Source: a virus
IMG/VR virus record: IMGVR_UViG_3300005253_000055
DNA: 64,000 nucleotides
Strand: one strand, 5' to 3'
Numbering within the stretch: the first letter of the stretch is position 1; the number at the start of each line of letters is the position of its first letter. Below the pieces are notes generated by a model, which worked only from the letters and a program-made list of their open reading frames with translations, was not told the origin of the DNA and ran no database searches. Shown here one piece after another: positions 8,446 through 62,163 of this stretch. The position numbers and the translations under genes were made by a program.

Positions 8446-8536
8446 TAAACTACATCAGACAACTACTTGACATATATTATTAATACACTCTATTTTACAT
8501 TGACTAAAACTAATACTACATTTAAACTACATAAAG

Positions 8537-8866: not shown

Positions 8867-8938
8867 ACTACATCAGTAGTCCTACTGGTACACGTTACTA
8901 ATACATTACACTATTACAACTACTAAAACAATAGACAA

Positions 8939-9079: not shown

Positions 9080-9083
9080 TACA

Positions 9084-44192: not shown

Positions 44193-47100
44193 CTAGAATG
44201 TCTTCATATAGTTGATACGTTCTTCTAAATGCTTCAATCCCCTGATCTGATTCCATAATGGAACTACATCCAGTATCTTATCCCCTTTCCAACGTCCCTT
44301 CTTATCTCCCTTCTCATATCTCTGCCACTCGATACCATCAAAGGTAACGGCTGGTAGCATAGAGTATATTCCCTTACCTAACTTCTCTACTACACTGATA
44401 GTAGCCATAGGAGTTCTTAATATCTTACCTGCTTCTATAGGATTGATAAAGAACCATAGCTCTGAATTAAGTCTATATGCCTGGTACACGGCTAAGTCCC
44501 AGAAGAACCTCTTGACTGTTCCTTCCTCTGGTTCATCTCCAGCTTCTAAACTACTTAGAGCTGTTACAAAAATCAATGTTCCTAGCATCAAGACCCCTTC
44601 CTTTATAGTTTGCTGTATAAACATTTTTCTCCAAGCCGGCATTTCATTCCAGTTCTTACTACTAGCAGCAACTATTCCTCCCAATCTCTTATAATCCTGT
44701 ACTACTTCCATCAAAAAGTTTTTGGTAACTACATATCTACCCGGAAGATTAGCTCCAATTGCTTCATTGAATACTGTCTTACCTGCAAATTTCTCCCTAC
44801 CAAATCTAGCATCCCATCCTGGAGCTAACCATCGTCTAAAGAGCATACTCATTCTACCAAGGACTGTTCTTTGCCATACAGTTGTATCCTTTTTGTTATA
44901 GTTACCATGAAGGTGTCTGTAAAGCTCTTTAATCCTCCCTGCAAACTCATATAAGTCTTTAGACAGAATACCTCCTTCCACCAATATACTTCCATCATCC
45001 TTCTTAGATATACTGCTATAGACATCGGGTAGTTCGTTGAATACTTTCTTATTTGCTTTGTCCATAGGCTTATTGTGCTTCTCAGCCCAGTCCATGAAGG
45101 AGTATATCTTCCCTCCTTCTATTCTATGTGATTTAGCAAGAGACAGAGCTAGTTGAGTCTGCATCGTATGTTCCCCCATGTTGATCATAAACATGGAAGC
45201 TCCCATATTCAATCTTTTTAGTATTGACTCCTCCTTTAACGGATTACCAAATTCATCAAAGGTCTGGTATATATCATATGCTTCCATATATCTACCAAAT
45301 GTAGACTCTGTAAACCTTTTGGTAGTATCTGACATAAACTCAGGAAGTAATTTTATATACTCCTTAGTCGCCCATCTATAATCTGCACCAGTATAGAACA
45401 AGCCACCTGCCGTCATGATTGAGTTCATGAACTGACCTATTGTCATGTTATTAATTCCGGCTGACAGGTTGAATCCTAGTTGTAGTAATGCAGTAGATCT
45501 AGTTATTGTATCTAATACCTTAGCTTTATTAATCTTAGTTCCAAACAAGTCCCCCTCAAACTCCTTGTACTCCCCATATACAACCATGTCCAGATAAGAA
45601 CTGATTCTCCTATATGCATTAGATGTTCGAGGATTGATAGGAGATTGCTTTGGAGCAGGAGCACCTTCTGGAGTAACGGTTTTAATACTGCCCTTAGAGT
45701 CTACAACCGTTCTCATTCCTACTAAGTATTTGACTGCATGTAAATCAGGAGCTATAGAACTCATAGCACTGTAGTTCCTGCTCATGGTCATGAACCTAAC
45801 TAAGTTTGATACCATATCCAAAGAAATTGCATTAGTATCCATTCCATTTTCCCCTCCTACCGTACTAACATATTTAACAGGAACCAGTTTGAATGGTCGA
45901 TCCTGTCCATCTCTTCGTTCAATTGCATATTCCGTATTCTCTTCAGTTATCTGACTAGCCAATCTTAGTTCATGCTTCATAACACTAAGAGGCCCTTGAC
46001 CTTCTGACAATCGTTCTTGTGTTGGTTTAAGAATAGGTATAAGCTGATTACCCTTTCTATATATTGCAGGAAGCTTTTCTTGTGCACTTCCGTAAAACTT
46101 ATTGAAGAAAGTAATAAACTCCTGCTCCTCTTTAGCTAATTTCTTAAACTCGGAAGTTCCAGGAATAATATAATCTCCAGTAAGTTCTCCATCTTGCTTT
46201 ATAAGCATGAAGTCATAGAACTTTCTGTAATTAAATTCACTTACTCCTTGAGACTTCTTATACTTTCTAAGAGCTTCTGATTGTTTTTGTAACTCTCCAT
46301 GAACAAAGCTATTCATACTCTTTGCTATAATAGCTCTCTTACGTTCTACAGCCTTCGCTGTGAGAGCTAAGATAGGATCTACGGAACTAACCATTGCTCC
46401 GACCCGGTGCATTCCCTCTGTTATATCTTCACCTATGCTGTTAAGAGAATTACGTAAGTCCTCCTTAGTTAAATTCACATCTCTAGTATAAGGAAATAGA
46501 AACTCTACACTATTTTCCAGAGCTACTTCCCGGTATATAGATTGTACGTCCTGGACAGCCTTAAGTACTGGTGAAATATATTTATCTCTATATTGTCTGT
46601 CAATCTTTAATCCTTCCTCTCCAAACTCCCCATACATCTCCTTAAATCCTTCTTCGATTAATCCAAAGGAACTTGCATAATCTAAGAGCTTTTCAAGCTT
46701 CACTAGCTTCTCTCTAGGAGTACCAGCCGCAGCTTCTATCTCATCTAAGTCTTCTATTACGGCTCCCGCTTGGGCATTAGCGAACCGGGTATACTCTAGT
46801 ATACCCTCTTTATATTGTACTTCCTCAAGTCTTCTTTCCAATTGCTCCCTCAATTTAACGAGGCTTGCATGGCTTTTTCCCTCTCCAATTTGCCGCTTAT
46901 AGATCGCTAATTTGTGTTTGAGACTATCTATCACTTTTTGGAGAACGTCTAGCTGTCGTGAAATTTGATTATCTCTGGTGGCAAATACAGCGTATCTGAG
47001 TTCGTCAGATTCCGGGGCTATCTTACCCTCCTGTCTGTTCATAGCTTCTTGCGTCTTTCCAAACAACTCTTCTAAGACACTGCCACTTATATCAACTCCA

Positions 47101-50100
47101 AGTACAGTATTCAAAGCCTTGATCATAAGATCAACAAACTCACTCCATATTGTAGTGTTCTCTTTCTTACCTTCTATGTAACTCAGTTGCCGTTGGAAAT
47201 TTCTATCACTATATGCAGCAGTTATGAACTCCTCTGGACTACTCAATCCTTGATGATCCGCAGGAAACCTATCCGCTTTCTTAACTCTATCCAGCATATC
47301 TACTACCTCTGCACTATACTGTCCATCTCTTGATAGTAAAGGCATTGTTGCATAGTGTACAGCTTCATGTGTTAAGGCAAGAGTAAACTCCTCTATACCT
47401 AAATCCTCTCTGACTACCATACTCCGTTCTCGTAGATAGGCTAGAGCATCGGCCCTCTCTCCTTTTACTTTCTCCGTATTTACCTCAAAAGTCCCCTCCC
47501 TAAAGTCTACTTCTTCCCTTAATTTATCTATAAGTAACTGTATATCTTCATCAGCAGATAAAAAGTCAGTAGTATTAAAGAAGGTCTGTAGATTCATCTC
47601 CCCCTTTTGTCGTCTTCGAGTAGCAACAGTATTGGTTCTCAGTGAGAATATAATCCGATTATCTCTATCCTCATGTATATTATAGTTCTTTAACTTATAA
47701 GAATCTGTTATAATCTTCACTCTTTTAAATAGACCTTGGTCATTGAGCTTCTTAAGTAAAACTCTCTTATTAAGTCCTCTATCGAAAGCTACCATAGCTC
47801 CAGGCCAATCTGTTGTCACACCTAAGCCAGGAAGATACGTCTTACTTGACCCTCTTTTGGCAATAAATGACTTAGAAGTATCCTCATAAGATCCTCCATA
47901 AGGTACTAAGTCCTTAACGTGAGCATTATTTTCTATAAACTGCTCCATAAAGGGTTCCCCAAATACTTGTTCCTTCTCAAATTGTATCATGGAATCCCGG
48001 AAGTAGTCAGCCATAGACTCTTGAGTGAAAGAATACTGGGGATCACTCCATACTTCTATTGGTACTAAGTCAATGATTGAATCAACAGTAGGGGTCATAC
48101 CTTTGGAAAGAATAGTATAATGAATCAAGTTTTTTCCAAACTCTTTAGTTTCAGAATTTTTAAGAATCTCTCGGAAGGCAATTGTTAGATCATCTTGTTC
48201 TCTCTGAGATAATCCATATCCTCTTTCTACTGATACAGTATTGTATCTATTGTCCCTATCCATATTATCTCTATGAGGTAACAATCTAGCAAGTAGTCTG
48301 TTATCCTTCATAGCTGGCAGTTCCTTCACTTTTTGCAATTGTATATCAATCGAATTAGTTCCTACCAGTAGCTCTTGTACCTTCTTCTCCGTGAATAGAC
48401 CTTGTAACGGCCCCCCTTCTATTGTCATAAGCCAGAGGAAGGAGTCGTTGTTGATCAAGTTCATTTGATCTGCTGTAAGGTTATCTTTATTGAGATGAGA
48501 GACCATTCTACGCTTTATGTTAGTTAGTCCATCTCTAGTAAAAGGAAAGAACTGAGTTGAGAAATCTTTAGCCGCATTTATAACACCGTTAAAGGTTGAA
48601 GTCATTGGATAATCTCTTCCGTCTAGAACTCCTTCTACTCCTGTAATAATATCATTCCTTCTTTTTCTTCCCTCTCGTTCTTCTACTGGTGTACCATTTG
48701 TTACAGAGTCAATCAAGTCATCTCTTGCCTCAATAGCTGCAATAGTATTGATAGTTCCAGGAGTATCAGAACTAAAAACTCTGTTTACTTCTACTAACTT
48801 TCTCCCTGCTATATGAAGGAAATAGAAGGTAGATAGAAGTTCCATCTGTCCCTCAGCTTCACTTATCTCCTTTCCTATATTTCTTGCTAATACCTCTGTA
48901 TCTATATTATATAGCCGATCTGTTCTACCTCCTAGCTTTTCTATTAAACTCTTTAAGTTTGCTGGAGTATTATCCCCACGTAGGTATTTCGTAGTCAACT
49001 CTAGAATAACTGGTTGATTAGTTAGAAGTACTGCTAGATTATTAGCGGCTGCCTCCCATTCACTAGAGGCTACGTTAACTACACCTAGTCTTAGTAGTAA
49101 GTTAATGACAGGAGTAGTAAACTCATTATCATTAATAGATCCAAGTACAGGGTCTTTAGTATTATCTAAAGCCGCTGACAGTCTAATAGATAAATTGTCA
49201 GTAATCAAACGACCATTAGTATCCTTAACTCTATTGAGCTTAGTATACTTTTCTCCATCTACTATAACGGTGAAGTTACCTTGCAACCTTAACCCCCCAT
49301 CTGATCTAGCATATTGTCCGATAGTCTGTCCTTTTAAAGCACTAGCATAGGTACTGATACCCCTACTTGCTGCCTTATTACGTATACTCATTTCTATCTC
49401 TGTTCCCGGACTATTTACATTTGCAAAAGGGTTACCTTTTGACTTCTTGGGTCTGAGTTTATTTGCAGCTTCGGTTAATACAGAACTATCTACACTTTCC
49501 AACATTTCCTCTAAGTGAGCAGGATTAGTCAGAATCGAAGTATTAATATCTATTATCAGATTCTCAAGTCCTTCTCTAGTATTATCCTCTAAGTCTTCCG
49601 TGTTGTATTCAATCTTAGTTATAGTAGGATTAGTTGCACCTAGTCGTTGTTTTTCTGATTCTAGTTTGGATAAAGCATATTGTACTGATAGTGCGAAGTG
49701 ACCTTTGAATTTTTCGGGATATTCAAGGGCAATGTCCTTTGCACTTTCCGGTGTGTGCATTAAACGGCTTAGAATATGGCTCTCCGAGGAATCAAACTTA
49801 TAACCCTGTTTTTCTAAGGTGGCTGCAAAGTTACCCATTGGGTTCCACTTTTCCCCTGTCTTAGTAGTGTATTCCACTTTAGCATTAGGCATCATAAGGA
49901 ATACCTTATCCATATCGAAGTCTGTACCCATTTGAGTAGTGATCTCGCCAGGAACTAGGATTACCTTACCCATTGACTCAGGCAAAATTCTAACTATTCT
50001 AAGTGGAATCATAGAGTTCTTACCATGTCCAGGAATTCTATACCCCACAAGGGTTCTTAACTCTCCCGGTATCCCTTCAATATTCGTTATACCGAGTTTT

Positions 50101-53100
50101 TGAGCTAACTTATAAGGAAGAGCTACTTCGGCTCCTATTACCTTCCCATCTTTATTTCTTACAAACCCTAACTCTTTAGTTCCTTTTTCTTCCTGTACTC
50201 CTCCTAACTCTGCTATCTGTACTAAACTAGCACCGTTAATAGTCTGATTAATAACATTCTTCTTGAATAAAGAAAGTATTATCTGTTCAAATCTCTTCTG
50301 ATAAGCTGGAAATGCAAGGGGTAATTCAAAGGTAACATCATTCTCCGTTTTTATAATGTTTAAGGCCCTTTCATAATTCTCCGGTAAATCTCTCTCTTCT
50401 ATACTCCTCTTTATTACCCTTCCTAAGTTCGTATAAAACTTCTCTTTCTCTTCCAACCCCTTTATCTCTTCTTTAATAATCTGAACTTGATCTGGATGAT
50501 AAACTACAATTTCGTCTACGTCCTTAATACCATAAGTAGTCTTAGTCTTAGCTTCTGCATCCGTAGTTACCCACTTTGAGATATTTAATTTTACCTCATA
50601 GATATGTGTACCATAGACCTTAGCATCTTCTCGTGTAAGCGCAAAGTTTATTCCTCGTCCTTCATGTGCTTTACCTTGAAGACTCAGATCGAAGTTCTTT
50701 ATATCCGGACTGTTCGACCCATGATAATACGTCTCTTGTGTAATAGAATTAGGAAAAGGAGTTTCTGTAACAATTTCTTTAGTATAACCTAACTGCTTGT
50801 TTAAATCGTCAAGTGACCTACCTACAAGTTGTTCTGTTACATTATGATAAAGATCAAAGAGTTCTTCTCCCCCTATCTTCTTACCGCCTAAGATGTATCC
50901 CTGTGTCCATTGTCCTTTCTTACCTCCAACTTCATCTGACAGCATATTAGATATTATATGCTTCCTTGCCTGAGTACTCATCATAACAGGCTTATCATTT
51001 TCCGGAACTATCTGAGGAATCCTTTGAAACCTTGTTTCTAACTCAACTGTTTTCCAGTTACTAAGATCATCATTTATATCCTTTATACCACTGAGATCAA
51101 GACCAACCTTTCGGGCTGATTCCATGTTAACCTCGTCTATTCCCTGCTCCTCCATCGCCAGTCTCAGTTTCTCAAAAGCAGGAGAGGCTTTAGTAAATTC
51201 TCTAAGAAGAGGAAAGACAACGTGTTTATCTACAACCCGAACTACTCTGTTATCAACATCTAAATGGAATCCATCATAGATAGTTTTAATAGGATTTAAC
51301 AAAGGTCTTATTCCATCTGGAGTTACAAATTCCCCTCCAGCTTGATAATTCTTATAAGCTGCTTCGTGTTCATCAAGCCATGTTCCTTGCCCCTCCATCT
51401 TATGCCTGTGCTTATCTAAACTAATAAAGCCCATCGAGTCTGTTTTATTAGCCCCCTTTCTATTAGGATTACCGGGTTCTTTTCTATAAGGAGCGATAAC
51501 CTTTGCAGCTTCCTCAGTCGTAGTAGGAATAATCTTTTCAAGCCCGTCCAGTGTCTCAATATCCTCTTTAAATACATCCTTAAGAATAGAAGTAGTGTAC
51601 GTCCTCTTGTCTCCATAAGAGTCATTTAAGTCACTTAACTCCAGAGTTTCCATACCAGGAGTGGTAAGGGTTGCTGCTCTCTTATTAAAGTTATCGTAAT
51701 CAGTATAAAAAGCCAAATCCCCTGCTATCAATCTCCTAAGTTCATTTTTAACTATAATGTCAGAAATCACATAATCTCTAACCATCTCCCTCCAAGGATC
51801 TGTGTTCTTATCTGCTGGATACAACTTCCTCCAGTCAGGAGATACCGACTTCTTGTTTATCTTAAGGTTGTCTAATCTTGCTAATTCCGTAGTTAATTCA
51901 TTTTCAATAAATTGATTAATCTCCTTTTGAAGATCTCCCATGAGATTCTTATTAGCATCAGTAGCTAACTCAACTTCAATCTGCTTTGCAGTCATATCTT
52001 CAACCATCTTCCGAATTTGCTGTGCAGTCTTAGATTTATTAAGAAAGGGGAGTAAAGTGAATTGCTGAGAGTTCTCTGTATAGTTCTTATATGTACTAGG
52101 AGTTCTTTTCTCCCTCTGCATCTTAGCAATATCTTGATAGAAGTAACTCATTAACATAGCTCTAACACCCATTGTATAGGTATTATGTTTGAGACTATCT
52201 TTCATACTTAGTCTAGGTACTACTGCAAACAGTAACTTCGACCTATCAGCAAAGAGGGGAAAGGCTATATGCATTACGTTTGGAGCCGCACCATTGACAA
52301 AAGCATTGTATCTTAAAACAGTTTCGTCTATCTCATTTAGGTTAGCAAATGTCTTCTTAGCTTCTATTTCTCCTTTGCGTTTATATGCACTGAATTGATA
52401 CTTGCGAAGGATTCGTCTAAACTCCGGTTGCTCTAAGATTTGATCTAAGAATATAGATTTATACAATCTATTACCTGTAGGATTATACCATACATCCTTA
52501 TCGTACATTTCTACGAAGCTAGATCCTTCCTTCTTAAACTCCTCAAATACCCTATCAAGAGTACTAGGCATGTTTATAGGATAAACTGTCTTCCCCTCTT
52601 CATTTATATAGGAGTCTGTAGTGTTAGATTCAAAGTTCTTTTGTACTGAAATAGGACGGGTAAGGATACTTATATCTACATCATAGATATTCTGACCGTT
52701 CTTTAAGTCAGTGACTAGCTTACTAAACCCATATGTTTCCCCTATTCCTATAATATATCTGTATAAATTAGCACCAGAATAGTAACTTCCATCTGCCTCA
52801 ACACCAGTTTCAAGTGCTAGTTCTAGGTTTTCTTGACTAATATCAGCACCTATAATCTCTAAGAACTCCTGAAGAACGGGAGCTCTCTTAAGTACCTCAG
52901 ATAGATCTTCAATTACCTTTGCTCTATCCTCTAAAAGAGGAAGCAAGGTTTCAAGTTTCTGTACCTGTCTCTGATCAACTTCATACTCTAGATTCTCTCC
53001 CTTAATAAACAAGTTGTCCTTTGCATTCCCTCTCCATCTCTCTAATATACGTCCCTCTGGTCTGGAAGCATTACTGTTGTAGGATCTTACAGTGACAGTC

Positions 53101-56100
53101 TTTGTATCGTCTTCATACGTCTCCTTCTCTATAAAGCCCATAAACTCATTAGAAACTAACATCATGTTTCTATAAAAATCTGCCATGAGTCTGGGATCGT
53201 ACTCTGGAGAAGACACCTCACTCTTTCTCCTCAATGCTTCTCCTACCTTTCGGAGCTTCTCTAGTTTAGACGATGTTAGTCTAAATATTGCATCTTCAAG
53301 TTTCCTTGAAGTCGTTGTTATTTGTAAGACATCTGAGTATAGCTCATTGAAAGGTAGGTAGTTATATTGTTTCTTTTCAGGAGTTGAAAGATAACTTTCC
53401 TGATCAGTTTTTATAGTAGATAGAAACAACTTAACTTGACCACTCAGTTTATCTTTCATTGATTCTTCTAAATGAGAACCGATAAGATGATCTTTCTCGT
53501 ATCTTTCAGGATCATCTGCTGCTTCTACATCATCATATCTTACCCTATGACCAAACTCTTTTAATTGTCTCTCTGCTTCTTCTCTCCATCCTCTTCCCTC
53601 TGGAGGTAAGTTCCCGTAAGGTTGTTCACTTGTATTCCAATTCTCATATATATGTCTGAATAGGAAGAAGTTCTTACTAAGTCTTACTCCTTTACTTGTT
53701 TGCATAATCTTTAAAGACGGAACAGTAAAGGATTTTATTGAATCATAAACCTTCTTGGCCTCGTCTACACCTAGATTATTACCTGTCTTAGCATCCAGAA
53801 TAGCATTACTAAGTAAGCCATTACGTATCCTTTCGTAGGTTATGAGAGGAGACTCTACTCTGCCTTCCGCAGCAATCTTCTTCTGCTCATCTAGAAATGC
53901 CGAGTTGATAGTTCTAAGAAGATCCTCCTTAGCTTGAGAGCTAACAGAAAACTGCAGGGAGAATACTGTATTGAAGTCACCCTCAGGGCCTAGTATGTCC
54001 GCCGGCTCCTCTTTTTCTAGCGGGGCTTCTCCAAGTGTAATATCAGAAGGCTTCCCAATGTTCTCTTCTAACAAAAGTTGTATGTCCTGGTATATACTAC
54101 CATTCTTGTTTACAGCATTCGTTAGAAGAATACCGCCAGCAGGATGTTCCTTAGATGAAGTTAGATAGTTAATATAACTATCGTAGGTATCGTCAAAGGT
54201 TACTCTACTCTTATACTTTCCTACACTATTTATTAAGTCCTTTCTTACATTATATCTCTTGTTTTTAAGAAAGTTTCTTAGATTTTGTTCTATAGGATAA
54301 GTACTTATAGCTTTACTAGATATAAACTTCTCAGTTTCTTCATCGTACTTTTGAGGATAAACCGTTCCCTTAACCTTTGTTAGTTCTTCCTGATCTATCT
54401 TTATAACTTCTCCCTTTCCACCTTTTCCAGCAGATGTAGTATCATTAAAGAGAATAAACATTCCTTCCGTTCCTTCTCTTACTTGAAGGAAGAACTTATT
54501 ATCTCTAGTCTCTATAGCAGAATCCGTAAACAAAATATGTTCCAACTCCGTTATGTCCCCTTTTCTTAAAAGATTGATCGCTGTATCTACAGCATCATCA
54601 GATAGGAAAGAGGTATGTAGTTGAAGTGCTTTATATATACCGGATGGAGACATAAAGGCTGTATAGATAAGTCCCTGTTTTGACATTTCTGGACCGCCTT
54701 CTAAATAGACTGCTCCAAGATCCGAGATCATCTTCTCGTCACTGAGATTACTTTTGTCTAATTCAATCTTTGTACCTTCTGCAAACTGACTACCTTTAGT
54801 GGTAAGTATAGTAAGAGGAACTGACTCTAATTCAAACTTATTTCCCTTCTTCGGAACCCATTGAGTTTGGAGAGTGGTTATAGAAATATTAGCTCTAGGA
54901 ACGGTCATGATGTTTGCGTTACCAACTACCTTGCTATAATCTCTATGGTTTTGATTATCTTTGGTAGTAGTACGCATTTCCACTTTCTCACCTGCCTGAA
55001 GTCTGCGGTATAATTCCTTTCTCCCAAGATTGATCGATTCTCCTTCTACTTCCTTATTCCCTGCTAACTTAGCAGCTCTGATTCCACTTTCTTTTATTAC
55101 TACGAAGATAGGATGTTGATTCCATTCTTCTCCTTTAAACTCTTCTTTATGCTCATCCCACCACTTGCTTTCTCCTTCTTTTACTAACTCTAGTTCTACA
55201 ACAGTACCAAGAGGTAGGTTAGGACTAGCTATAATATCCCAATTAATTTCTTCTTCTGGATTAGCTACGATTGGTTCACCATTCGCTAAGACAATTTTCT
55301 TGTCGTAGAACTCTCCTTCGTTTTTATAGTAACCTCCAGATGTAAGTACAGTAGTAGAAGATGTTTCTGGTTTTGTCTTAGGTTCATAGGTATCAGGTGC
55401 AGTTTCTTGACTACGCTCCAGAGCGTCTTCTATCTGTGGAGCTACAATCTCTATATCCTCTCCTGTTATAATCCCAAGCCCCTCTTCTACCATCTCCTGT
55501 TCTCGGTCAGTAATTTCCTTAAGGAGTTTTTCTTTCTGTTCTAGTGTTTCTTCTGTAGTTATATCTATTACGTTACCTGTCTCCGGATGTTTCCAAAGTT
55601 GTACTCCCCCCTCATCATACTCCTTTATATAACCTTGTTCTATTAACTCAGTATCTGTAAGTGGAACTTCGGTAGGAGAAACATGCTCTTCTACTAATTC
55701 ATCTATAGCCTCCTGAGCTTCTTCACTAGTAGTCTCTTTTTTTAACTCTTCTAGAGTCTCAGGTTTTGTCCCTTCAAGGTCTTTCTTTACCCGTTCCTTT
55801 GTTGTTGCTTTCTTTTTCTCTCTTTCTGATTTAATCCTAGCTGCCTCTTCTTTGACAGCCTGTTCTGTTGCCTTTTCTTTACTTTCTAATCTCTTTAGCA
55901 TAGACTCTCGACTAGCTTCTGCGATCTTAGCAGATTGTATTTTATTTCTAGCTTCCGTAAGAAGTTTACTTCGATCTGCTACACTAAGCTCATTAAAGTT
56001 CTCAAATTGCTCATTAAGGTAATCGGCAACTTCTTTCCTAGCTGCCAACTGTTTCTTAGTTATATCTTCCTTCAACATTACCATTACCTCACTATTCTCA

Positions 56101-57983
56101 GCAATATTGAGTTCATTGAGATATTTTCTGGAAACCAGGTTATTCAACTGATCATGACTTACTACATTATATAGTAACTTTTGATCTTCCTCGGTTGGCT
56201 TTAGTTTGTCGTACTCTGTCTGTATAGACTTAAGATCTACCTTGGCTTGTTTAAGTTGCTTTGTTAGATCTGTTTTTTCCTTCTTCTTTGCTTGCTCTAA
56301 ATTCTTTTCTAAGATTTGAATTCCTCCTTTTACTCCCATCTCAGTACGGAGAAGCTCCGCTGCCAATACTCCATCGGCACTCAACTTACTTATGTCCAGA
56401 GACTTAAGACTTATATCCGCCATTTGTTTGCTGACCTTTCCATTCTGGGCTAGTAACTGTTCATTTTCAAACTGCCTTCTAACAAGAGAATCTGTTATCT
56501 TAGGGCCATGCTTATTTATACTAGCATCCCACAATTGACCTATTCTCTTAGTATTAGCTATAATAGTATCAATTGATTGGATATACTCAGGAGAGAAATC
56601 AGCTTGTTCCTCTTTAGGAGCAGTCTTAAGGATACTGAGATCTTCTACCATCTTGTCTATCTCTCCTAGTGAGGCATTCTTGAGAGCTAGTTCTGCCATC
56701 ATCTGATCTCTGGTAAACTCTGCGTTATAAGGATCATCAGTCTTTAACGATTCTACATAGGCATTATTTGCTTGTATGAAGGATGCTTGTCTAGTATTAA
56801 TTGCATCTATTCTAGCATCGTCATAAGACTGTTCACCTGGCTTTACTCCACGCTCAAACAGTTTTTGCTTTAACCCTCGTCCTGCTGTCTGCATAACACC
56901 AGCACCGATAGCACCAAAGAACATAGCAGTGTGCATCTCAGGTTCTTTAAGATACTGTCCTATTCTATCATGAAACTCTGAATCTTCTGCTAATCCATTC
57001 CTAAGATCAGCTAGGTATTTACTCTCTCTTGCAACTACGTATTGATAGCCTTCTTCAAAACCTTCACCAGCCATATCAATTCCTATTGCTGTTGCCATTT
57101 TCCTTCTACTAACTCCTAGTGAACCTATATCCCCCACACCCTTAGATGTTTTTGTTGATCTAGCAGTAGCCGATTTCCCAATACCTCTAGATAGTAACAT
57201 GTACTGTGGTATGTCTTGAAGAAGCATAGCGTAGTTAGCTATGTATGAAGTATGCGCAGCTTCTGAAGCAATTGATCTAGCCTTATCCTCATTTCCTGTT
57301 TTCCTAAGAGCATCATCATAGGTCTCTTTCCATGTCTGACTAGCTTCCATCATATTCTCCATATGTCTGGAAATAGTAGCCTGTGCAATAGGTTCGGCAA
57401 ATCTCATAACTCTGCCCATCTTTGTGCCTATTCCCATCACCTTTCCTAATGCGGCAAGTCCTCTCGTAGCTCCTACAGCTGGTAACATAAGAGATATAGA
57501 ACTAGCTATACTTGAGCCATTAGCAGCCCACCATTCAAAGGATAGAGGATGAAATCCACCTGGATCGTGCTCATACACGGGAGTAACTTCCTTAGCTCCT
57601 TCCCTGAGCCCCTTACCTATATCTGATAACCAATTACCCCACTCATCATTTTGTCCTTTAACTGTCTCTGCTATTTCTTGAAAGTCTAGGAGATAGCCTA
57701 TACCTTCTAGTGTTCCACCAAGGAGTTCCCCTACAATAGTTTGATTAGCAAATCCCCCAAGTTCACTTAAGAAACCCTGTTGTTCTGCTCTGAATATTCC
57801 TCTATCTCCGGCGGTAGGTAGATATCCTACATCATATCCAGATACATCTCCCCTATAACCTAAGGGGTCAAAGTCATTAGTAGGAACACTAGAACTTCTC
57901 TTACCAAATAAAGCTTCTTCATTCTTCTCCTTATCTTCAACTAAAGGAGTAGAACTTCTTTTACCAAATCCAGAATCTTGCAT
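44193..57983 (-). CDS. giant virion-type RNA polymerase polyprotein (two-barrel RNAP with ART-like and metallopeptidase-like modules)
   Basis: Uninterrupted 4,596-aa ORF. TLVGYRIPGHGKNSMIPLRIVRILPESMGKVILVPGEITTQMGTDFDMDKVFLM parallels the beta-prime segment ...NRAPTLHRLGIQAF...NADFDGDQMAVH. TAATG coupling to the upstream gene. Confidence 0.75.
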   Translation of the reverse strand: MQDSGFGKRSSTPLVEDKEKNEEALFGKRSSSVPTNDFDPLGYRGDVSGYDVGYLPTAGDRGIFRAEQQGFLSELGGFANQTIVGELLGGTLEGIGYLLDFQEIAETVKGQNDEWGNWLSDIGKGLREGAKEVTPVYEHDPGGFHPLSFEWWAANGSSIASSISLMLPAVGATRGLAALGKVMGIGTKMGRVMRFAEPIAQATISRHMENMMEASQTWKETYDDALRKTGNEDKARSIASEAAHTSYIANYAMLLQDIPQYMLLSRGIGKSATARSTKTSKGVGDIGSLGVSRRKMATAIGIDMAGEGFEEGYQYVVARESKYLADLRNGLAEDSEFHDRIGQYLKEPEMHTAMFFGAIGAGVMQTAGRGLKQKLFERGVKPGEQSYDDARIDAINTRQASFIQANNAYVESLKTDDPYNAEFTRDQMMAELALKNASLGEIDKMVEDLSILKTAPKEEQADFSPEYIQSIDTIIANTKRIGQLWDASINKHGPKITDSLVRRQFENEQLLAQNGKVSKQMADISLKSLDISKLSADGVLAAELLRTEMGVKGGIQILEKNLEQAKKKEKTDLTKQLKQAKVDLKSIQTEYDKLKPTEEDQKLLYNVVSHDQLNNLVSRKYLNELNIAENSEVMVMLKEDITKKQLAARKEVADYLNEQFENFNELSVADRSKLLTEARNKIQSAKIAEASRESMLKRLESKEKATEQAVKEEAARIKSEREKKKATTKERVKKDLEGTKPETLEELKKETTSEEAQEAIDELVEEHVSPTEVPLTDTELIEQGYIKEYDEGGVQLWKHPETGNVIDITTEETLEQKEKLLKEITDREQEMVEEGLGIITGEDIEIVAPQIEDALERSQETAPDTYEPKTKPETSSTTVLTSGGYYKNEGEFYDKKIVLANGEPIVANPEEEINWDIIASPNLPLGTVVELELVKEGESKWWDEHKEEFKGEEWNQHPIFVVIKESGIRAAKLAGNKEVEGESINLGRKELYRRLQAGEKVEMRTTTKDNQNHRDYSKVVGNANIMTVPRANISITTLQTQWVPKKGNKFELESVPLTILTTKGSQFAEGTKIELDKSNLSDEKMISDLGAVYLEGGPEMSKQGLIYTAFMSPSGIYKALQLHTSFLSDDAVDTAINLLRKGDITELEHILFTDSAIETRDNKFFLQVREGTEGMFILFNDTTSAGKGGKGEVIKIDQEELTKVKGTVYPQKYDEETEKFISSKAISTYPIEQNLRNFLKNKRYNVRKDLINSVGKYKSRVTFDDTYDSYINYLTSSKEHPAGGILLTNAVNKNGSIYQDIQLLLEENIGKPSDITLGEAPLEKEEPADILGPEGDFNTVFSLQFSVSSQAKEDLLRTINSAFLDEQKKIAAEGRVESPLITYERIRNGLLSNAILDAKTGNNLGVDEAKKVYDSIKSFTVPSLKIMQTSKGVRLSKNFFLFRHIYENWNTSEQPYGNLPPEGRGWREEAERQLKEFGHRVRYDDVEAADDPERYEKDHLIGSHLEESMKDKLSGQVKLFLSTIKTDQESYLSTPEKKQYNYLPFNELYSDVLQITTTSRKLEDAIFRLTSSKLEKLRKVGEALRRKSEVSSPEYDPRLMADFYRNMMLVSNEFMGFIEKETYEDDTKTVTVRSYNSNASRPEGRILERWRGNAKDNLFIKGENLEYEVDQRQVQKLETLLPLLEDRAKVIEDLSEVLKRAPVLQEFLEIIGADISQENLELALETGVEADGSYYSGANLYRYIIGIGETYGFSKLVTDLKNGQNIYDVDISILTRPISVQKNFESNTTDSYINEEGKTVYPINMPSTLDRVFEEFKKEGSSFVEMYDKDVWYNPTGNRLYKSIFLDQILEQPEFRRILRKYQFSAYKRKGEIEAKKTFANLNEIDETVLRYNAFVNGAAPNVMHIAFPLFADRSKLLFAVVPRLSMKDSLKHNTYTMGVRAMLMSYFYQDIAKMQREKRTPSTYKNYTENSQQFTLLPFLNKSKTAQQIRKMVEDMTAKQIEVELATDANKNLMGDLQKEINQFIENELTTELARLDNLKINKKSVSPDWRKLYPADKNTDPWREMVRDYVISDIIVKNELRRLIAGDLAFYTDYDNFNKRAATLTTPGMETLELSDLNDSYGDKRTYTTSILKDVFKEDIETLDGLEKIIPTTTEEAAKVIAPYRKEPGNPNRKGANKTDSMGFISLDKHRHKMEGQGTWLDEHEAAYKNYQAGGEFVTPDGIRPLLNPIKTIYDGFHLDVDNRVVRVVDKHVVFPLLREFTKASPAFEKLRLAMEEQGIDEVNMESARKVGLDLSGIKDINDDLSNWKTVELETRFQRIPQIVPENDKPVMMSTQARKHIISNMLSDEVGGKKGQWTQGYILGGKKIGGEELFDLYHNVTEQLVGRSLDDLNKQLGYTKEIVTETPFPNSITQETYYHGSNSPDIKNFDLSLQGKAHEGRGINFALTREDAKVYGTHIYEVKLNISKWVTTDAEAKTKTTYGIKDVDEIVVYHPDQVQIIKEEIKGLEEKEKFYTNLGRVIKRSIEERDLPENYERALNIIKTENDVTFELPLAFPAYQKRFEQIILSLFKKNVINQTINGASLVQIAELGGVQEEKGTKELGFVRNKDGKVIGAEVALPYKLAQKLGITNIEGIPGELRTLVGYRIPGHGKNSMIPLRIVRILPESMGKVILVPGEITTQMGTDFDMDKVFLMMPNAKVEYTTKTGEKWNPMGNFAATLEKQGYKFDSSESHILSRLMHTPESAKDIALEYPEKFKGHFALSVQYALSKLESEKQRLGATNPTITKIEYNTEDLEDNTREGLENLIIDINTSILTNPAHLEEMLESVDSSVLTEAANKLRPKKSKGNPFANVNSPGTEIEMSIRNKAASRGISTYASALKGQTIGQYARSDGGLRLQGNFTVIVDGEKYTKLNRVKDTNGRLITDNLSIRLSAALDNTKDPVLGSINDNEFTTPVINLLLRLGVVNVASSEWEAAANNLAVLLTNQPVILELTTKYLRGDNTPANLKSLIEKLGGRTDRLYNIDTEVLARNIGKEISEAEGQMELLSTFYFLHIAGRKLVEVNRVFSSDTPGTINTIAAIEARDDLIDSVTNGTPVEEREGRKRRNDIITGVEGVLDGRDYPMTSTFNGVINAAKDFSTQFFPFTRDGLTNIKRRMVSHLNKDNLTADQMNLINNDSFLWLMTIEGGPLQGLFTEKKVQELLVGTNSIDIQLQKVKELPAMKDNRLLARLLPHRDNMDRDNRYNTVSVERGYGLSQREQDDLTIAFREILKNSETKEFGKNLIHYTILSKGMTPTVDSIIDLVPIEVWSDPQYSFTQESMADYFRDSMIQFEKEQVFGEPFMEQFIENNAHVKDLVPYGGSYEDTSKSFIAKRGSSKTYLPGLGVTTDWPGAMVAFDRGLNKRVLLKKLNDQGLFKRVKIITDSYKLKNYNIHEDRDNRIIFSLRTNTVATRRRQKGEMNLQTFFNTTDFLSADEDIQLLIDKLREEVDFREGTFEVNTEKVKGERADALAYLRERSMVVREDLGIEEFTLALTHEAVHYATMPLLSRDGQYSAEVVDMLDRVKKADRFPADHQGLSSPEEFITAAYSDRNFQRQLSYIEGKKENTTIWSEFVDLMIKALNTVLGVDISGSVLEELFGKTQEAMNRQEGKIAPESDELRYAVFATRDNQISRQLDVLQKVIDSLKHKLAIYKRQIGEGKSHASLVKLREQLERRLEEVQYKEGILEYTRFANAQAGAVIEDLDEIEAAAGTPREKLVKLEKLLDYASSFGLIEEGFKEMYGEFGEEGLKIDRQYRDKYISPVLKAVQDVQSIYREVALENSVEFLFPYTRDVNLTKEDLRNSLNSIGEDITEGMHRVGAMVSSVDPILALTAKAVERKRAIIAKSMNSFVHGELQKQSEALRKYKKSQGVSEFNYRKFYDFMLIKQDGELTGDYIIPGTSEFKKLAKEEQEFITFFNKFYGSAQEKLPAIYRKGNQLIPILKPTQERLSEGQGPLSVMKHELRLASQITEENTEYAIERRDGQDRPFKLVPVKYVSTVGGENGMDTNAISLDMVSNLVRFMTMSRNYSAMSSIAPDLHAVKYLVGMRTVVDSKGSIKTVTPEGAPAPKQSPINPRTSNAYRRISSYLDMVVYGEYKEFEGDLFGTKINKAKVLDTITRSTALLQLGFNLSAGINNMTIGQFMNSIMTAGGLFYTGADYRWATKEYIKLLPEFMSDTTKRFTESTFGRYMEAYDIYQTFDEFGNPLKEESILKRLNMGASMFMINMGEHTMQTQLALSLAKSHRIEGGKIYSFMDWAEKHNKPMDKANKKVFNELPDVYSSISKKDDGSILVEGGILSKDLYEFAGRIKELYRHLHGNYNKKDTTVWQRTVLGRMSMLFRRWLAPGWDARFGREKFAGKTVFNEAIGANLPGRYVVTKNFLMEVVQDYKRLGGIVAASSKNWNEMPAWRKMFIQQTIKEGVLMLGTLIFVTALSSLEAGDEPEEGTVKRFFWDLAVYQAYRLNSELWFFINPIEAGKILRTPMATISVVEKLGKGIYSMLPAVTFDGIEWQRYEKGDKKGRWKGDKILDVVPLWNQIRGLKHLEERINYMKTF
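47184..47426 (-). other. zincin-like HExxH metallopeptidase module inside the giant ORF
   Basis: LALTHEAVHYATMP (H3539-E-x-x-H3543; codons at 47355-47369), with SPEEFITAAY 41 residues downstream. Confidence 0.45.
49908..49922 (-). other. DxDxD catalytic metal-binding motif (D2688, D2690, D2692)
   Basis: The minus strand reads GAC TTC GAT ATG GAT, encoding DFDMD. Confidence 0.7.
50475..50740 (-). other. ADP-ribosyltransferase-like module (H-Y-E pattern) inside the giant ORF
   Basis: YYHGSNSPDIKNFD...GRGINFALTREDAKVYGTHIYEVKLNI...VDEIVVYHPDQVQII, with H2421, Y2457 and E2491. Confidence 0.5.
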
Positions 57984-59728
57984 TACTTGTTTTTAGTTTT
58001 GTATACGTCTAGAATGTCTGATAGTAGATCAGCAAAGTTACTATATTCTAAGTTATAAGTCTTTCCATCAAACTCTTCAATAAAGTATCCACTTGTCTCT
58101 ACTTGACCTTGTGAATTTCTTCTTGTCTTCTTTCGTCCCTTTATCTTCATTTCGGGAAGTACCTCCCCCTCATTAGTTATACCAGGAGTAGTATCAAATA
58201 GATTAAACAGGGAAGTAGTAGCTATGTTTTGAACTTTAGGACTTGACTCACTCATAACGTACTGCTTCTGTCCTGTACTAGTACGTATATTAACTACATT
58301 TCCATCTAGTATAGAAGGGTTATCAGCTATATTTCCTAAATAGCTAATAGGATTAAGTCCTCCTACATAGGTAAGATCTTCTAAATCAGAATAGAGTTCG
58401 CTTCTTTCTTCCTTCCTCACCTGTTTAATATTGCTAAGATCATCTATTTCAAAGAGCGTCCTTTGTAAAAAAGCAGCAGTTAATTCATCCTCCTTGTTTC
58501 GTCTAATTGCTGGATCACTTGTACCAATGATATAATTTTGACTAACTCCAGGAAGTACATCCTTTTGATACTGATCCCACATATCTAGCATAGAGGAGCT
58601 AGTATAATCAAAGTTTTTAGGTGCTTCTTCTCCTGTCATTACTCTAAATACTTCAGAACTCTTATCTAAGTATTCCTTATTAAGTTTTATATTACTCTCC
58701 TGTTGAACAGTCTCATCAAATTTTCCTCCTATACTTGTATCAGCAAGAAACTTTGAGTACTCAGTAAGTGACTCTACGTCACCTTTAAACTGAACTGCTG
58801 ATCTAGGATTAAACCCAAACTTAGTCTTAATGCTAGGTTTTACTGGTATATCCCCTAAACGTTCTAATGTCAAAGTACTTGGATCCCCTGGTTTCTCTAC
58901 TCTATTCAGGAAAGAAGGAAAAGAATAGGAACTTATATCATTGCTACGAACTTGTCTGGAAGCTACACCCTGTAAGTAGGTCAGTACACTCATCTCTTTT
59001 TCCTCTTCTGTCATCTGTCTTCCTAACTGTTCCTCATGTACCCTCAGAAGTTGTTTTCCTTCATCTGAATTTAAGAAGTGAAATATAGACTGTTTAGCTC
59101 TCTCATCTGTTCTGGCCTCTGTTACTCTTCCTGTATATCTTCCTGTTCTTATACCAGCAACAGCATCATCAAATAATGAAACTAATTCTGGTGGCATTTC
59201 CCCGCTCTCCCCTAATATCTTACCTAAAGACTTTTCTGCCTGTCCTAACCAATCTAACTGTTGCTGTCCCCCAAATCGTCCAGGTATATATCTACCAGTC
59301 TCGGGATTAATAGTAGTTGTTGGATCTCCTGTATCAAAGAGTAGACTTTCACCTGCAAAATCAGCCTGTTGTCGTAGTTTCTGTGCCTGCTTGTAGTTTG
59401 CGGAAGTCTGGGCAAGGGCTAGTAGTCGGGGGTCACTAACTAACTGCCTAGTCAGTCCTCGTGCCCTTGTTTGAAAGTCAGGATTATAAAGACCTCCCTT
59501 GGAGGAGTCTATCAACTCCCTATATGCTTGATCAACCCCCCCTGCGATCTCACTTCTCAGTTCAACGTCCCCAGGAGCTACATCCAATGTACCGAAGTAA
59601 TCAAGGATAGTTTGCTCTTGTTCAGAATTTTTTGCGTACCTATTCTCCATTGTTCCGAGTAGGTTACCAAATTGATCCACAGGCTGCTCTTGACTAGCAT
59701 ACTGCGTTGGTCTAAATTGTAAAGGCAT
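57983..59728 (-). CDS. virion-module protein, function unknown
   Basis: 581-aa ORF, translationally coupled (TAATG) to the giant gene. Confidence 0.65.
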   Translation of the reverse strand: MPLQFRPTQYASQEQPVDQFGNLLGTMENRYAKNSEQEQTILDYFGTLDVAPGDVELRSEIAGGVDQAYRELIDSSKGGLYNPDFQTRARGLTRQLVSDPRLLALAQTSANYKQAQKLRQQADFAGESLLFDTGDPTTTINPETGRYIPGRFGGQQQLDWLGQAEKSLGKILGESGEMPPELVSLFDDAVAGIRTGRYTGRVTEARTDERAKQSIFHFLNSDEGKQLLRVHEEQLGRQMTEEEKEMSVLTYLQGVASRQVRSNDISSYSFPSFLNRVEKPGDPSTLTLERLGDIPVKPSIKTKFGFNPRSAVQFKGDVESLTEYSKFLADTSIGGKFDETVQQESNIKLNKEYLDKSSEVFRVMTGEEAPKNFDYTSSSMLDMWDQYQKDVLPGVSQNYIIGTSDPAIRRNKEDELTAAFLQRTLFEIDDLSNIKQVRKEERSELYSDLEDLTYVGGLNPISYLGNIADNPSILDGNVVNIRTSTGQKQYVMSESSPKVQNIATTSLFNLFDTTPGITNEGEVLPEMKIKGRKKTRRNSQGQVETSGYFIEEFDGKTYNLEYSNFADLLSDILDVYKTKNK

Positions 59729-59730
59729 AT

Positions 59731-62163
59731 CTATTCTAGTCTATTTCTATACTTAGGTTTAACTCCTGCTAATTCCAGTAATTCTGACTTTGTCATACCA
59801 AGAGACGCAGCTAGTTCATCAGGGTCTGTAGTCGATAATAACTGCAATAGCATTGCTCTTGACTGCATATCCCCTTGTTGAGCATTAGCCACTAAGTTCT
59901 GTATTTCTTGTGAAGTAGCTTCTGTTGCGGATACCCTAGCTGCAACAGCTTGGTTCTGCATCATAGCACTAACTTGAGCAGCTCTATTAGCTTCTGCTAC
60001 ATTTCGTGCTCCTACTTGAGTACCAATTCGTTGTTGTCCTAACTCAAACTGGCCTCTTGCTTGTTCATCTGCAATAGCTGCTGATGTATTAGCATTAACC
60101 ATCTTACCAAATGTAGCTGCTCTTCCCAATGTTCCTGCTGTTCCTGTTACATTAGCCATACTCTCAGCACTTGCTAAATATGATTGTTCATTTCTACGTT
60201 GTATAGAAGGGAGTCTACTTCTGTATCTTAAAGGATTGAAAGATTGATAAGTAGGATCATATCCAGTTTGTAAATTCTTTAAAGCTCGGTTTCTACTAAT
60301 TGCACTAATTCCTACATTAGCTATGTTAATTAGATCTCCTGCATTGTCTTTTGCAAAATTTCCAACTCCCTGACCTATATCACTATTCACAAGATTGAAT
60401 CCTCTCCTTTTAAACCTGCTCATGTTAGCAGGATCTCTTCCTAAGCCTTCTACAGTATCAAATGGAAGAGATGAAGATTGTGGCGCTCCTCCATTAGGAT
60501 CTATTTCATAAGTTCCAAATCCTTTTCCTGTCTGTACTGCTCCTAAATTTGCTACTGGATCTTCTATACCATACTTATATTGATTGGCTATTTGCTGCCA
60601 GTCAGGTATCTCCAATCCATCTTGTCCTTTCTTCTTTAATCTACCTCCGTATTTCTTTTTATCCTTTGTTGGACTAAAAAGATCTTGTAGTTCTTGATTC
60701 CCACCAAAACTTTCTTCATCCTCTACTCTCTTAAAAGGAGCATTCAATCTCTGTTGGTAGTCAAGCAATTTTTGATCCTGAATATTATCAAATATTATCT
60801 TTCGTAAAGAAATCTTATCATCAACAAACAACTTACCTGCATCAAAAGAGGGAGGAATAGATGTAAGGGGAGTAAGCTCTCCACCATCCTGTCTTTTTTT
60901 ACCTCCGAAGTTCTTAGCAAAGTTAGCTTTCTTCACTATAGCAGGAGAGTACCTATCTTTATTTGACATTACTGCATTAGCAGCAGCCTGAACACTATCA
61001 TGACCATGCCTCTTAGCCCATCTAGTAAAGGAACCTCTTCTAGAAGGCTCAATATACATACTTCCTCCCTTCTTCCGTAACGGCACACTACCTCTACTTC
61101 CCATTGGAGCCAGAGGAGTATTAGGATCAAAATCAACCGTAGGTCTATTCAGATCACTATTGAACTTGTTCCACCAATCTTGTACAGGAGTACCAGGAAT
61201 AGTTACAGGCATATTAGAATTCATCATAGGATGACTATACCTATAGTTTAATGCATCTGTTGGATTTATCTGACCTCTCGTTGGAAGCTGATCATAATAT
61301 CCTTTTACTTGGGGAAGTTCTTTACCTACTGTTTGTTGTCTAGCCATTGGATTATTATTAAATTCTGATTCATAAAATCTATCATATATCTCAAAAGGAT
61401 AATTAAGTTGATCTACGTCAATTCCTTTATCTTTTAAAAAAGGAGGATCTATATCCCACTTATCATATACAGAAATATATCTACCCTTTTCGTCCGTTCC
61501 CGTACTAAGTTGATGTTTACCTAGTAAATCGCCAAAAAGAAGACGGGGTTCCTCATAGTTCTCCAAGAGTTCCATATTTGCTTTATACATTTGTCTTCTC
61601 TTTTGAAAGATATTTCGGGAAGGATTCTGTGCAGATTCATAGGCATAATCAAAGGCACCAGGAGTATTCATCCGTCTCTTGGCTCTCTCTTTCATTGTAG
61701 CACCAATCGTATAGTATGTTGCGTCTGGATCTGTTGCTCTTGTGGGTTTGTACTGAGATTTTACTAAGTGACGAGGACGATCTTCTGGAATACCATAGTA
61801 CTTGTTTATAAACTCCTTTCTAGCCTTCTGTACCTTCCTATCAGGAGGAATAAAGAAACCCTGTTTCTTTCCGGCTTTAACTCTATCCACAAACCTAGTA
61901 AGGTCTTTCAAACTCGTTGGGTAACCAAAAGACTGAGCTTCTGCTATTCTCTTTCTTAAATCTAATTCTTCGGGAGAAAATTCACCATCTCCTCTACGAT
62001 TCTTAAAATCTACTAGCGCATTATATAGGTCTACTAAAGGTTCTTTTTTATCTTTTGGTATTAATCCATATAGAAGACTATTAATTGTAGACAGGCGTTC
62101 TGGTGTAAATTTAGGAATTTCACCGCCATCTTGATACCTACGCTGACTTCTTTTATAAGCCAT
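59731..62163 (-). CDS. virion-module protein with repeated basic-QDGxE motif
   Basis: 810 aa; RRYQDGGEIP, KKRQDGGELTP, KKGQDGLEIP; Ala/Gln-rich helical C-terminus. Confidence 0.65.
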   Translation of the reverse strand: MAYKRSQRRYQDGGEIPKFTPERLSTINSLLYGLIPKDKKEPLVDLYNALVDFKNRRGDGEFSPEELDLRKRIAEAQSFGYPTSLKDLTRFVDRVKAGKKQGFFIPPDRKVQKARKEFINKYYGIPEDRPRHLVKSQYKPTRATDPDATYYTIGATMKERAKRRMNTPGAFDYAYESAQNPSRNIFQKRRQMYKANMELLENYEEPRLLFGDLLGKHQLSTGTDEKGRYISVYDKWDIDPPFLKDKGIDVDQLNYPFEIYDRFYESEFNNNPMARQQTVGKELPQVKGYYDQLPTRGQINPTDALNYRYSHPMMNSNMPVTIPGTPVQDWWNKFNSDLNRPTVDFDPNTPLAPMGSRGSVPLRKKGGSMYIEPSRRGSFTRWAKRHGHDSVQAAANAVMSNKDRYSPAIVKKANFAKNFGGKKRQDGGELTPLTSIPPSFDAGKLFVDDKISLRKIIFDNIQDQKLLDYQQRLNAPFKRVEDEESFGGNQELQDLFSPTKDKKKYGGRLKKKGQDGLEIPDWQQIANQYKYGIEDPVANLGAVQTGKGFGTYEIDPNGGAPQSSSLPFDTVEGLGRDPANMSRFKRRGFNLVNSDIGQGVGNFAKDNAGDLINIANVGISAISRNRALKNLQTGYDPTYQSFNPLRYRSRLPSIQRRNEQSYLASAESMANVTGTAGTLGRAATFGKMVNANTSAAIADEQARGQFELGQQRIGTQVGARNVAEANRAAQVSAMMQNQAVAARVSATEATSQEIQNLVANAQQGDMQSRAMLLQLLSTTDPDELAASLGMTKSELLELAGVKPKYRNRLE

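Follow-up and report, generated by a model that had tools for sequence, protein, structure and literature searches.

A giant crAss-type RNA polymerase polyprotein from marine sediment with a predicted ADP-ribosyltransferase domain in its Connector

Introduction

The closest described counterparts of the protein examined here are cargo proteins of the phages phi14:2, crAss001 and p-crAssphage (Carjivirus communis). In phi14:2, gp65, gp66 and gp67 belong to the virion; once inside the cell, early genes are transcribed by gp66 (bioRxiv 10.1101/2020.03.07.982082). It is a single-chain two-barrel RNA polymerase (RNAP) with a DFDxD motif, a bridge-helix/trigger-loop region and a Connector, which the paper describing gp66 places at residues 1095-1238. 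Orthologues of gp65 contain a zincin-like protease domain, and proteolytic processing of a polyprotein has been proposed, though not demonstrated, for this phage (bioRxiv 10.1101/2020.03.07.982082). In crAss001, gp47, gp49 and gp50 have been detected in virions by mass spectrometry, and the cargo proteins of both phages must traverse the tail partly unfolded. Here we examine a 64,000-nucleotide stretch of the IMG/VR virus record IMGVR_UViG_3300005253_000055 (hereafter the window), in which one giant open reading frame (ORF) of 4,596 amino acids (aa) is, judged by its alignments, a head-to-tail colinear fusion of three large proteins of the crAss-like transcription and cargo block, with a domain of predicted ADP-ribosyltransferase (ART) fold inside the Connector of the polymerase.

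Such fusions have been reported before, described as "a single huge polyprotein" (Drobysheva et al., bioRxiv 10.1101/2020.03.07.982082), and RNAP genes of up to ~6,000 aa are given in a review (PMC10136315). In p-crAssphage, gp44 (4,070 aa) is an RNAP already fused to a gp65-type module, and gp45 (1,957 aa), which also has a zincin domain, begins with the same N-terminal module as the window protein; RNAP fusion protein is the annotation of both. Comparable architectures are known from other phages. Iyer et al. (2017, PMC5512222) described N4-like virion RNAPs (vRNAPs) in which a zincin metallopeptidase (MPTase) and ART domains are joined to the polymerase, which is the same combination of activities in a giant virion-delivered protein, and the ADP-ribosyltransferase Alt of T4 is packaged in the head, injected with the DNA and modifies the host RNA polymerase (PMC5512222).

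A single chain joining three cargo proteins

The giant ORF (44193..57983, minus strand; 4,596 aa plus stop) starts with ATG and is unbroken, as an earlier note made from the sequence alone had reported for this 13.8-kb frame. Given the local base composition a stop would be expected about every 13 codons, and the probability of 4,596 stop-free codons, computed from the base composition of the ORF stretch, is ~1e-158; over the same stretch no ORF in the five remaining frames exceeds 147 aa. The ORF is real and cannot be chance. Its product has the same sequence as GenBank KKN88747.1, which is listed as a hypothetical protein and is encoded on a public marine sediment metagenome contig of 100,621 bp (locus tags LCGC14_0246380/390). 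The window matches this contig, whose length is usual for a complete crAss-like genome. The same protein is UniRef A0A0F9UMM7, named 'Large polyvalent protein associated domain-containing protein', and is the sole member of its 90%-identity cluster. No near-identical DNA (at least 85% identity) to the window was found among GenBank phages, and a single-sequence scan of IMG/VR gave no close relative.

When the protein was compared with annotated reference proteins by local blastp, residues 60-375 matched residues 87-457 of p-crAssphage gp45, residues 2066-2403 and 2520-2996 matched phi14:2 gp66 and crAss001 gp50, and residues 3666-4594 matched crAss001 gp49, phi14:2 gp65 and the C-terminal part of p-crAssphage gp44. 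The order of the parts, as shown by alignment, is an N-terminal cargo module, a coiled-coil spacer, the RNAP, a zincin-like domain and a gp65/gp49-type C-terminal module (Table 1). The extra length over gp66 is thus due to fusion with two neighbouring cargo proteins of crAss-like phages. In phi14:2, where the genes follow in the same order and the block likewise stands at the end of the structural genes, there are three genes (1,797 + 2,180 + 1,421 aa) instead of one chain, gp65 likewise combining an HExxH zincin with the C-terminal module; identity to the window protein is 22-25%. In p-crAssphage two genes take the place of one, no ART module was detected, and the zincin precedes the RNAP, being C-terminal in gp45, whereas in the window protein it comes after the RNAP.

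A scan of IMG/VR with a profile built from the second-barrel alignment returned 561 relatives, of which the best 80 were kept. The 62 complete ORFs with DFDxD among these 80 have a median length of 2,612 aa, six of them reach 4,596 aa or more, and the maximum is 5,641 aa. The colinear fusion of N-terminal module, RNAP and gp65-type module recurs in five independent contigs (L012, L014, L015, L016 and L038), where the chain is longer than in the window (5,420-5,641 aa). In three more contigs (L010, L020 and L033) the N-terminal module is fused to the RNAP and the gp65-type protein is the next ORF. The proteins of the five triple-fusion contigs and of L010 are 20-46% identical to the window protein, and L010 is the closest relative (31-36%). 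The triple fusion is therefore already a known kind of object and not unusual; with polyproteins in the literature, p-crAssphage gp44 alone at 4,070 aa and larger fusions in IMG/VR, the surprise that the earlier note expressed at the size of the ORF was overstated. Only the placing of an ART domain inside the Connector was not found in any other protein.

The polymerase core

Sequence comparison identifies a crAss-like (Crassvirales) gp66-type single-chain two-barrel RNAP within the ORF. A phmmer search of the whole ORF against PDB sequences gave one real match, the solved structure of phi14:2 gp66 (6VR4; E 4.5e-23), in which residues 2639-2968 align to gp66 residues 1327-1654 and residues 2066-2352 to gp66 residues 872-1143. 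The corresponding blastp values are 1.6e-28 against gp66 and 2.9e-38 against crAss001 gp50, and a tblastn search with residues 1800-3300 found 120 phage records, all crAss-like and annotated as putative RNA polymerase. To the RNAP part of L010 the module is 31-36% identical.

The earlier note had proposed a crAss-like two-barrel RNAP from two motifs, and both are borne out by these alignments. The catalytic barrel motif, which it placed at residues ~2644-2695, is TLVGYRIPGHGKN and begins at residue 2644 (nt 50054); the DFDMD within this barrel (residues 2688-2692, nt 49908-49922) aligns exactly with gp66 1361-DFDID-1365, and all three Asp residues are kept. Its proposed partner, RKGANKTDSMGFIS, falls in a stretch (residues 2066-2352) that aligns with the first-barrel region of gp66. 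It lies 469 residues upstream of the first motif, close to the ~500 proposed, although its position (residues 2175-2188, nt 51420-51461) differs slightly from the 51425-51480 originally given. ANKTDSMGFIS has these same coordinates (nt 51420-51461), and the region also holds a KVG motif (residue 2292). In a MAFFT alignment of six cores (window, gp66, crAss001 gp50, p-crAssphage gp44 and two metagenomic relatives) the GYRIP...G[ST]DFDxD barrel aligns together with the upstream N..D..[WYF]I[ST] and KVG motifs, which by alignment places both barrels in the same chain, joined by the Connector.

The first-barrel motif NKTDSMG has D-S-M where most relatives have D-A-Q. The closest relatives, L010 (D-A-M) and L011 (D-G-M), share with the window the lineage-specific form NKTD[SAG]MG; D-S-M is therefore a lineage trait, and the idea that it is a sign of decay was rejected.

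An ART-fold domain in the Connector

In the alignment of cores one insertion is exclusive to the window protein, at gp66 ~1167/1168, inside the Connector, which aligns on either side of it. The gp66 Connector itself lacks an ART domain, and alignments to the IMG/VR relatives skip window residues ~2400-2513. In blastp against ten of these relatives the alignments halt at ~2386-2407 (most at 2399-2402) and restart at ~2478-2530; where the subject coordinates can be traced across the gap they skip at most ~35 residues or overlap. No ART between the barrels was found in 85 related RNAP loci.

Profile and structure comparisons of the insert, which carries YYHGSNS at residue 2419, point to an ART-fold domain of PolyVal type, in line with the ART-like module of the earlier note. 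All ten of the homologues scanned match Pfam ART-PolyVal (PF18760), six of them above the gathering score. When the compact subfamily to which the insert belongs was compared with classical ART-PolyVal by hhalign, the match had 99.3% probability and E 2.6e-20 over the N-terminal half, and a hidden Markov model built from classical ART-PolyVal only matches residues 2416-2511 (E 3e-18) and nothing else in the window, which is profile-level homology to bona fide members of the family. An AlphaFold2 model made from the single sequence was useless (pLDDT 36); a seven-sequence alignment fixed this, giving pLDDT 78 and pTM 0.72. Every one of the top 50 Foldseek matches listed for this model in the PDB is an ART domain of the PARP family (tankyrase 1/2, ARTD13, PARP4); their probability is up to 0.99 and the TM-score ~0.55. 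The top matches in BFVD are PolyVal ARTs, the best being a 'PolyVal ADP-Ribosyltransferase' (E 1.4e-4).

Motif alignment gives a putative H-Y-E triad of H2421 (YYHGS), Y2457 (AKVYG) and E2491 (DVDEIVVY). Within the subfamily the Glu is invariant, all six members that cover the His position keep it, and one has Phe instead of the Tyr. The spacing of the triad is PARP-like. T4 Alt, a separate protein, serves here as a functional model for the insert; it belongs to the R-S-E clade, and the window ART would be H-Y-E (PARP-like).

The module is rare. Among 1.84 billion representative proteins, a full HMMER search brought up no more than 12 relatives, and tblastn of the module against GenBank phages gave no match. 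A word-index protein search with the module returned nothing, which reflects a limit of the index and not absence, as proteins 57-65% identical to it exist; with residues 2000-3000 the same kind of search returned two proteins, both matching the ART insert alone. The 57-65% identity is to part of P0001 and P0002, two gp65-type proteins encoded on other crAss-like contigs, and the rest of these loci is 21-30% identical to the window. Recent foreign acquisition of the insert was considered and rejected, its GC content being 0.37 against 0.38 for the ORF and its DNA identity to other copies 67-75%.

Elsewhere in the cargo block the ART profile matches the N-terminus of the RNAP ORF (L018 and L067), a gp65-type ORF (L079, L043, P0001, P0002 and P0005) or a small separate ORF (L030), usually near an HExxH. 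The BFVD matches of the ART model include A0A7M1RT64_1 from the crAss-like gut phage cr130_1, automatically annotated as ART-PolyVal-like, and, at rank 26, A0A191VYL0_1, an N4-like vRNAP of Roseobacter phage RD-1410W1-01; ARTs in proteins of the virion RNAP block are therefore already visible in the databases. In L003, a related crAss-like virion RNAP of 2,414 aa (2266-9510, plus strand) has the ADP-ribose-processing NADAR domain near its C-terminus (residues 2207-2321; Pfam 56.6 bits against a cut-off of 35.1). The next large gene, P0002, combines the ART module with a zincin, and a small ferritin-like ORF lies between the two. NAD and ADP-ribose domains thus recur in the cargo block.

The zincin-like domain

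The HExxH module of the earlier note proves to be a conserved zincin domain. HEAVH (residues 3539-3543, nt 47355-47369) is followed by the third ligand E3585 and then by a conserved W..h...h..G helix, and H3539, E3540, H3543 and E3585 are invariant in 12 aligned sequences, among them gp65, p-crAssphage gp45, crAss001 gp47 and metagenomic relatives. Pfam matches to the relatives' segments are sub-threshold only (SprT-like in 5 of 12; ATLF, MPTase-PolyVal and Peptidase_M91 in one each). The zincin profile matches a ~110-residue domain in 9sfn_G, an 'Internal virion protein' (E 1.8e-7), as well as 23sg_S gp10 (E 4e-6), the tetrameric ejection protein gp48 of phage PhiM1 (8VB2_A, E 9.5e-5) and anthrax lethal factor (E 8e-4), and the alignments span the HExxH, the downstream E-F and the following amphipathic helix. 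At profile level the crAss gp65-type zincin domain is homologous to anthrax lethal factor and to a domain of the large internal or ejection proteins of T7/KP34-type podophages, a hint of kinship between the 'RNAP-associated' protein and components of the ejectosome.

The domain falls within residues 3457-3679, a stretch that has no counterpart in L010, and HExxH is not found in the gp65-like ORFs of L010, L011 and L020. It therefore behaves as a mobile accessory, like the ART.

Terminal modules and feature coordinates

The N-terminal and the gp65-type C-terminal modules are both conserved across crAss-like phages. The N-terminal module is always N-terminal, either of the RNAP ORF or of a separate protein of ~1,900 aa. 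It is hydrophobic, and the first 400 residues are rich in Gly (13-17% in three of the four 100-residue blocks), as the earlier note had described. That note had also pointed to a duplicated FGKRSS, which is present at residues 6 and 26; the duplication is not conserved in relatives, and its candidacy as a conserved signal or cleavage site was rejected. The E/K-rich spacer, probably a coiled coil, peaks at 38% E+K in residues 701-800. The 'hydrophobic C-terminal segments' of the note reduce to one clear transmembrane-like helix, with equivalent hydrophobic stretches in relatives; no further strongly hydrophobic 19-mer was found. Neither the N-terminal module nor the 700-residue C-terminal module gave a PDB match by profile or by single sequence, or a match in Pfam, and Pfam searches returned nothing meaningful for the whole ORF and weak, sub-threshold, spurious matches for six pieces of 600-800 aa.

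Table 1. Features of the giant ORF and its upstream neighbour; coordinates refer to the window.
Feature	Residues	Coordinates	Strand	Remarks
Duplicated FGKRSS	6-11 and 26-31	57891..57968	-	variable N-terminal leader
Conserved N-terminal cargo module	~60-460	56604..57806	-	homologous to the p-crAssphage gp45 N-terminus and the N-termini of giant IMG/VR RNAP ORFs
E/K-rich spacer	~500-1000	54984..56486	-	composition only
gp66-type RNA polymerase module	~1339-3456	47616..53969	-	colinear with the L010 RNAP part, phi14:2 gp66 and crAss001 gp50
First barrel region, DPBB1 (double-psi beta-barrel 1)	2066-2352	50928..51788	-	aligns to gp66 858-1143
Compact ART-PolyVal-type ADP-ribosyltransferase domain (predicted)	~2403-2512	50448..50777	-	inserted at gp66 ~1167/1168
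Second barrel core, DPBB2 (double-psi beta-barrel 2)	2639-2700	49884..50069	-	catalytic DFDMD 2688-2692
Zincin-like (gluzincin) domain	~3500-3640	47064..47486	-	HExxH...E pattern
gp65 / crAss001 gp49-type 'RNAP-associated' C-terminal module	3666-4596	44196..46988	-	
Single transmembrane-like helix	4463-4481	44541..44597	-	sole strongly hydrophobic 19-mer; acidic patch next
Upstream 581-aa ORF		57983..59728	-	stop overlaps giant ORF start (TAATG)

Proposed function and alternative explanations

With several unrelated enzymatic domains (RNAP, ART and zincin) in one polypeptide of virion context, the ORF protein is a 'polyvalent protein' in the sense of Iyer and Aravind, built on a crAss-type RNAP. 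By analogy with phi14:2 and crAss001, the giant protein would be packed in the capsid, expelled through the tail partly unfolded ahead of or with the DNA, and refolded, after which it would transcribe the phage early genes through its DFDMD site. The ART would enter with the polymerase and, in the manner of T4 Alt, would ADP-ribosylate a target in the host or the phage. As for the zincin, it may be a protease that processes the chain into its modules, or belong to the machinery by which the ejected material crosses the envelope. We consider this account as a whole, a cargo block in one chain with a nested ART together with a packaged and injected early-gene polymerase, to be highly probable.

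Several observations weigh against it. We infer packaging, ejection, processing and all three enzyme activities, and the injection, host modification, self-processing and membrane insertion suggested by the earlier note are likewise inferences. A search of PHROGs with the whole ORF returned nothing, the window ART segment has no Pfam match even at E<=10 and so does not reach the gathering score itself, and the window zincin segment has no Pfam match at E<=0.1, which leaves it outside the curated metallopeptidase families. The E-values of the Foldseek matches in the PDB are modest (~0.025). The compact ART subfamily has Asn in place of the Tyr that is the first aromatic residue of G-x-Y-F in classical ART-PolyVal, and ART activity could be altered or lost because of this replacement. 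No homology to the N-terminal module was detectable in phi14:2 gp67 or crAss001 gp47, so that 'gp67-like' describes its position only. Position four in the catalytic motif is Met here and Ile in gp66; it is Val (57) or Ile (20) in 77 relatives, and the paper describing gp66 gives Ile or Val at this position for every crAss-like RNAP. The Met in DFDMD, the D-S-M of the first barrel and the Asn of the ART subfamily do not change the overall verdict.

One alternative is that the single ORF is an artefact of assembly or gene calling, the three modules being separate genes in the real phage. The window does derive from a metagenome assembly, and the modules are separate in many relatives (phi14:2 gp65/66/67, crAss001 gp47/49/50, L003 and L010). 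An artefact would, however, require in-frame junctions and the loss of both stops in a frame whose 13.8-kb length has a chance probability of ~1e-158; the junction regions look coding-like, with the zincin domain sitting in one of them, and published work already describes fusions of this kind. Five independent IMG/VR contigs show this colinear triple fusion, which makes an assembly artefact very unlikely, and we give this explanation hardly any weight. Harder to set aside is the suggestion that the ART insert is a catalytically dead structural or regulatory domain, such as an NAD or nucleotide sensor or a docking module, rather than a host-modifying enzyme. The whole subfamily has the Asn substitution and is ~40 residues shorter than classical ART-PolyVal, the window copy has Ala where most members have Thr, Pfam does not recognise it, and it lies inside the catalytic core and not at a terminus. 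On the other hand, the His, the second Tyr and the Glu of the triad are all present, and in gp65-like proteins the module adjoins the zincin domain, a setting typical of active effectors in polyvalent proteins. Seven subfamily members, otherwise 21-35% identical in the remainder of the protein, share 19 invariant columns, which implies strong purifying selection on the module. On balance we think a dead domain unlikely, though it deserves to be taken seriously.

The role of the zincin and the gp65-like C-terminal part can also be read differently, mainly as a component of the ejectosome (the envelope-spanning channel) that couples ejection to the polymerase, and not as an RNAP subunit or processing protease. 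The profile matches to large internal or ejection proteins of T7/KP34-type podophages (9sfn_G, 23sg_S and 8VB2) and the conserved transmembrane-like helix of the C-terminal module speak for this, and the N4 vRNAP is expelled together with ejection proteins (PMC13434306). Against it, the absence of any PDB match for the 700-residue C-terminal profile confines the similarity to one ~110-residue domain, and the authors of the crAss001 work assign channel formation to gp45 and gp46 and not to the RNAP-associated proteins. We regard a mainly ejectosomal role as possible but doubtful. A further idea, which we rate as quite improbable, is that the ART in the Connector acts in cis at the polymerase instead of as a freely diffusing host effector. 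It may ADP-ribosylate the polymerase itself and so release the self-inhibited state seen in gp66, it may modify the template DNA or the 5' end of the nascent RNA, or its targets may be host RNAP or defence proteins encountered by the incoming genome. If true, a two-barrel RNAP would here contain an NAD+-dependent modifying activity of its own, a type of enzyme not described.

Returning to the one-chain cargo block with its nested ART, the ORF is a divergent environmental example, from marine sediment, of the giant crAss-like virion RNAP polyproteins, and it mostly confirms existing knowledge. From lineage to lineage the three cargo proteins are freely reshuffled, as are the accessory domains (zincin, ART-PolyVal and, in one relative, NADAR), and the window protein offers a natural case of a two-barrel RNAP that tolerates a whole enzyme domain inside its Connector. 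Polymerases of the N4 type are T7-like enzymes of a single subunit and have no relation to the two-barrel fold, and the shared architecture is therefore convergent: crAss-type and N4-type virion polymerases have arrived independently at the same package of RNAP, metallopeptidase and ART, with the ART appended in N4-like vRNAPs and nested inside the polymerase core here. The link between the gp65-type zincin and the T7/KP34-type ejection-protein domain may help to assign a role to the 'RNAP-associated' protein.

Genome context and neighbouring genes

The giant ORF ends a minus-strand block and faces a convergent plus-strand replication module (DNA polymerase, ligase and helicase), and the same layout of cargo and replication genes is found in p-crAssphage, phi14:2 and contigs L003 and L005. 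It thus lies in the cargo and transcription block at the end of the structural module, where the gp65-type and N-terminal modules that would stand beside the polymerase are both fused to it. No terminator-like site was found between the two convergent blocks.

Because the start of the giant ORF overlaps the stop of the upstream 581-aa ORF through TAATG, the two are probably co-translated and part of the same cargo block. Searches of PHROGs, of GenBank phages and of the crAss reference proteins yielded no detectable homologue of the 581-aa ORF; in size and position it matches phi14:2 gp68 (579 aa). Neighbours of the giant ORF gave no match to phi14:2 gp68-71, p-crAssphage gp46/47 or crAss001 gp45/46.

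Further along the same strand, an 810-aa ORF (59731-62163, minus) contains a segment of ~100 residues (residues ~349-483) that is 37-50% identical to proteins of several gut crAss-like phages, one of these proteins (cr127_1) being annotated as a putative endolysin/lysozyme. Residues 122-264 of the 810-aa ORF are similar to the far C-terminal end of the 5,420-aa ORF of L043. It may be a lytic or a cargo protein. In the replication module, the 1,140-aa DNA polymerase ORF (18757-22179, plus) has polymerase matches at residues 26-681 and 1059-1109, with a match to the endonuclease family phrog_4645 between them at residues 784-899, which suggests that it holds an inserted homing-endonuclease or intein-like element.

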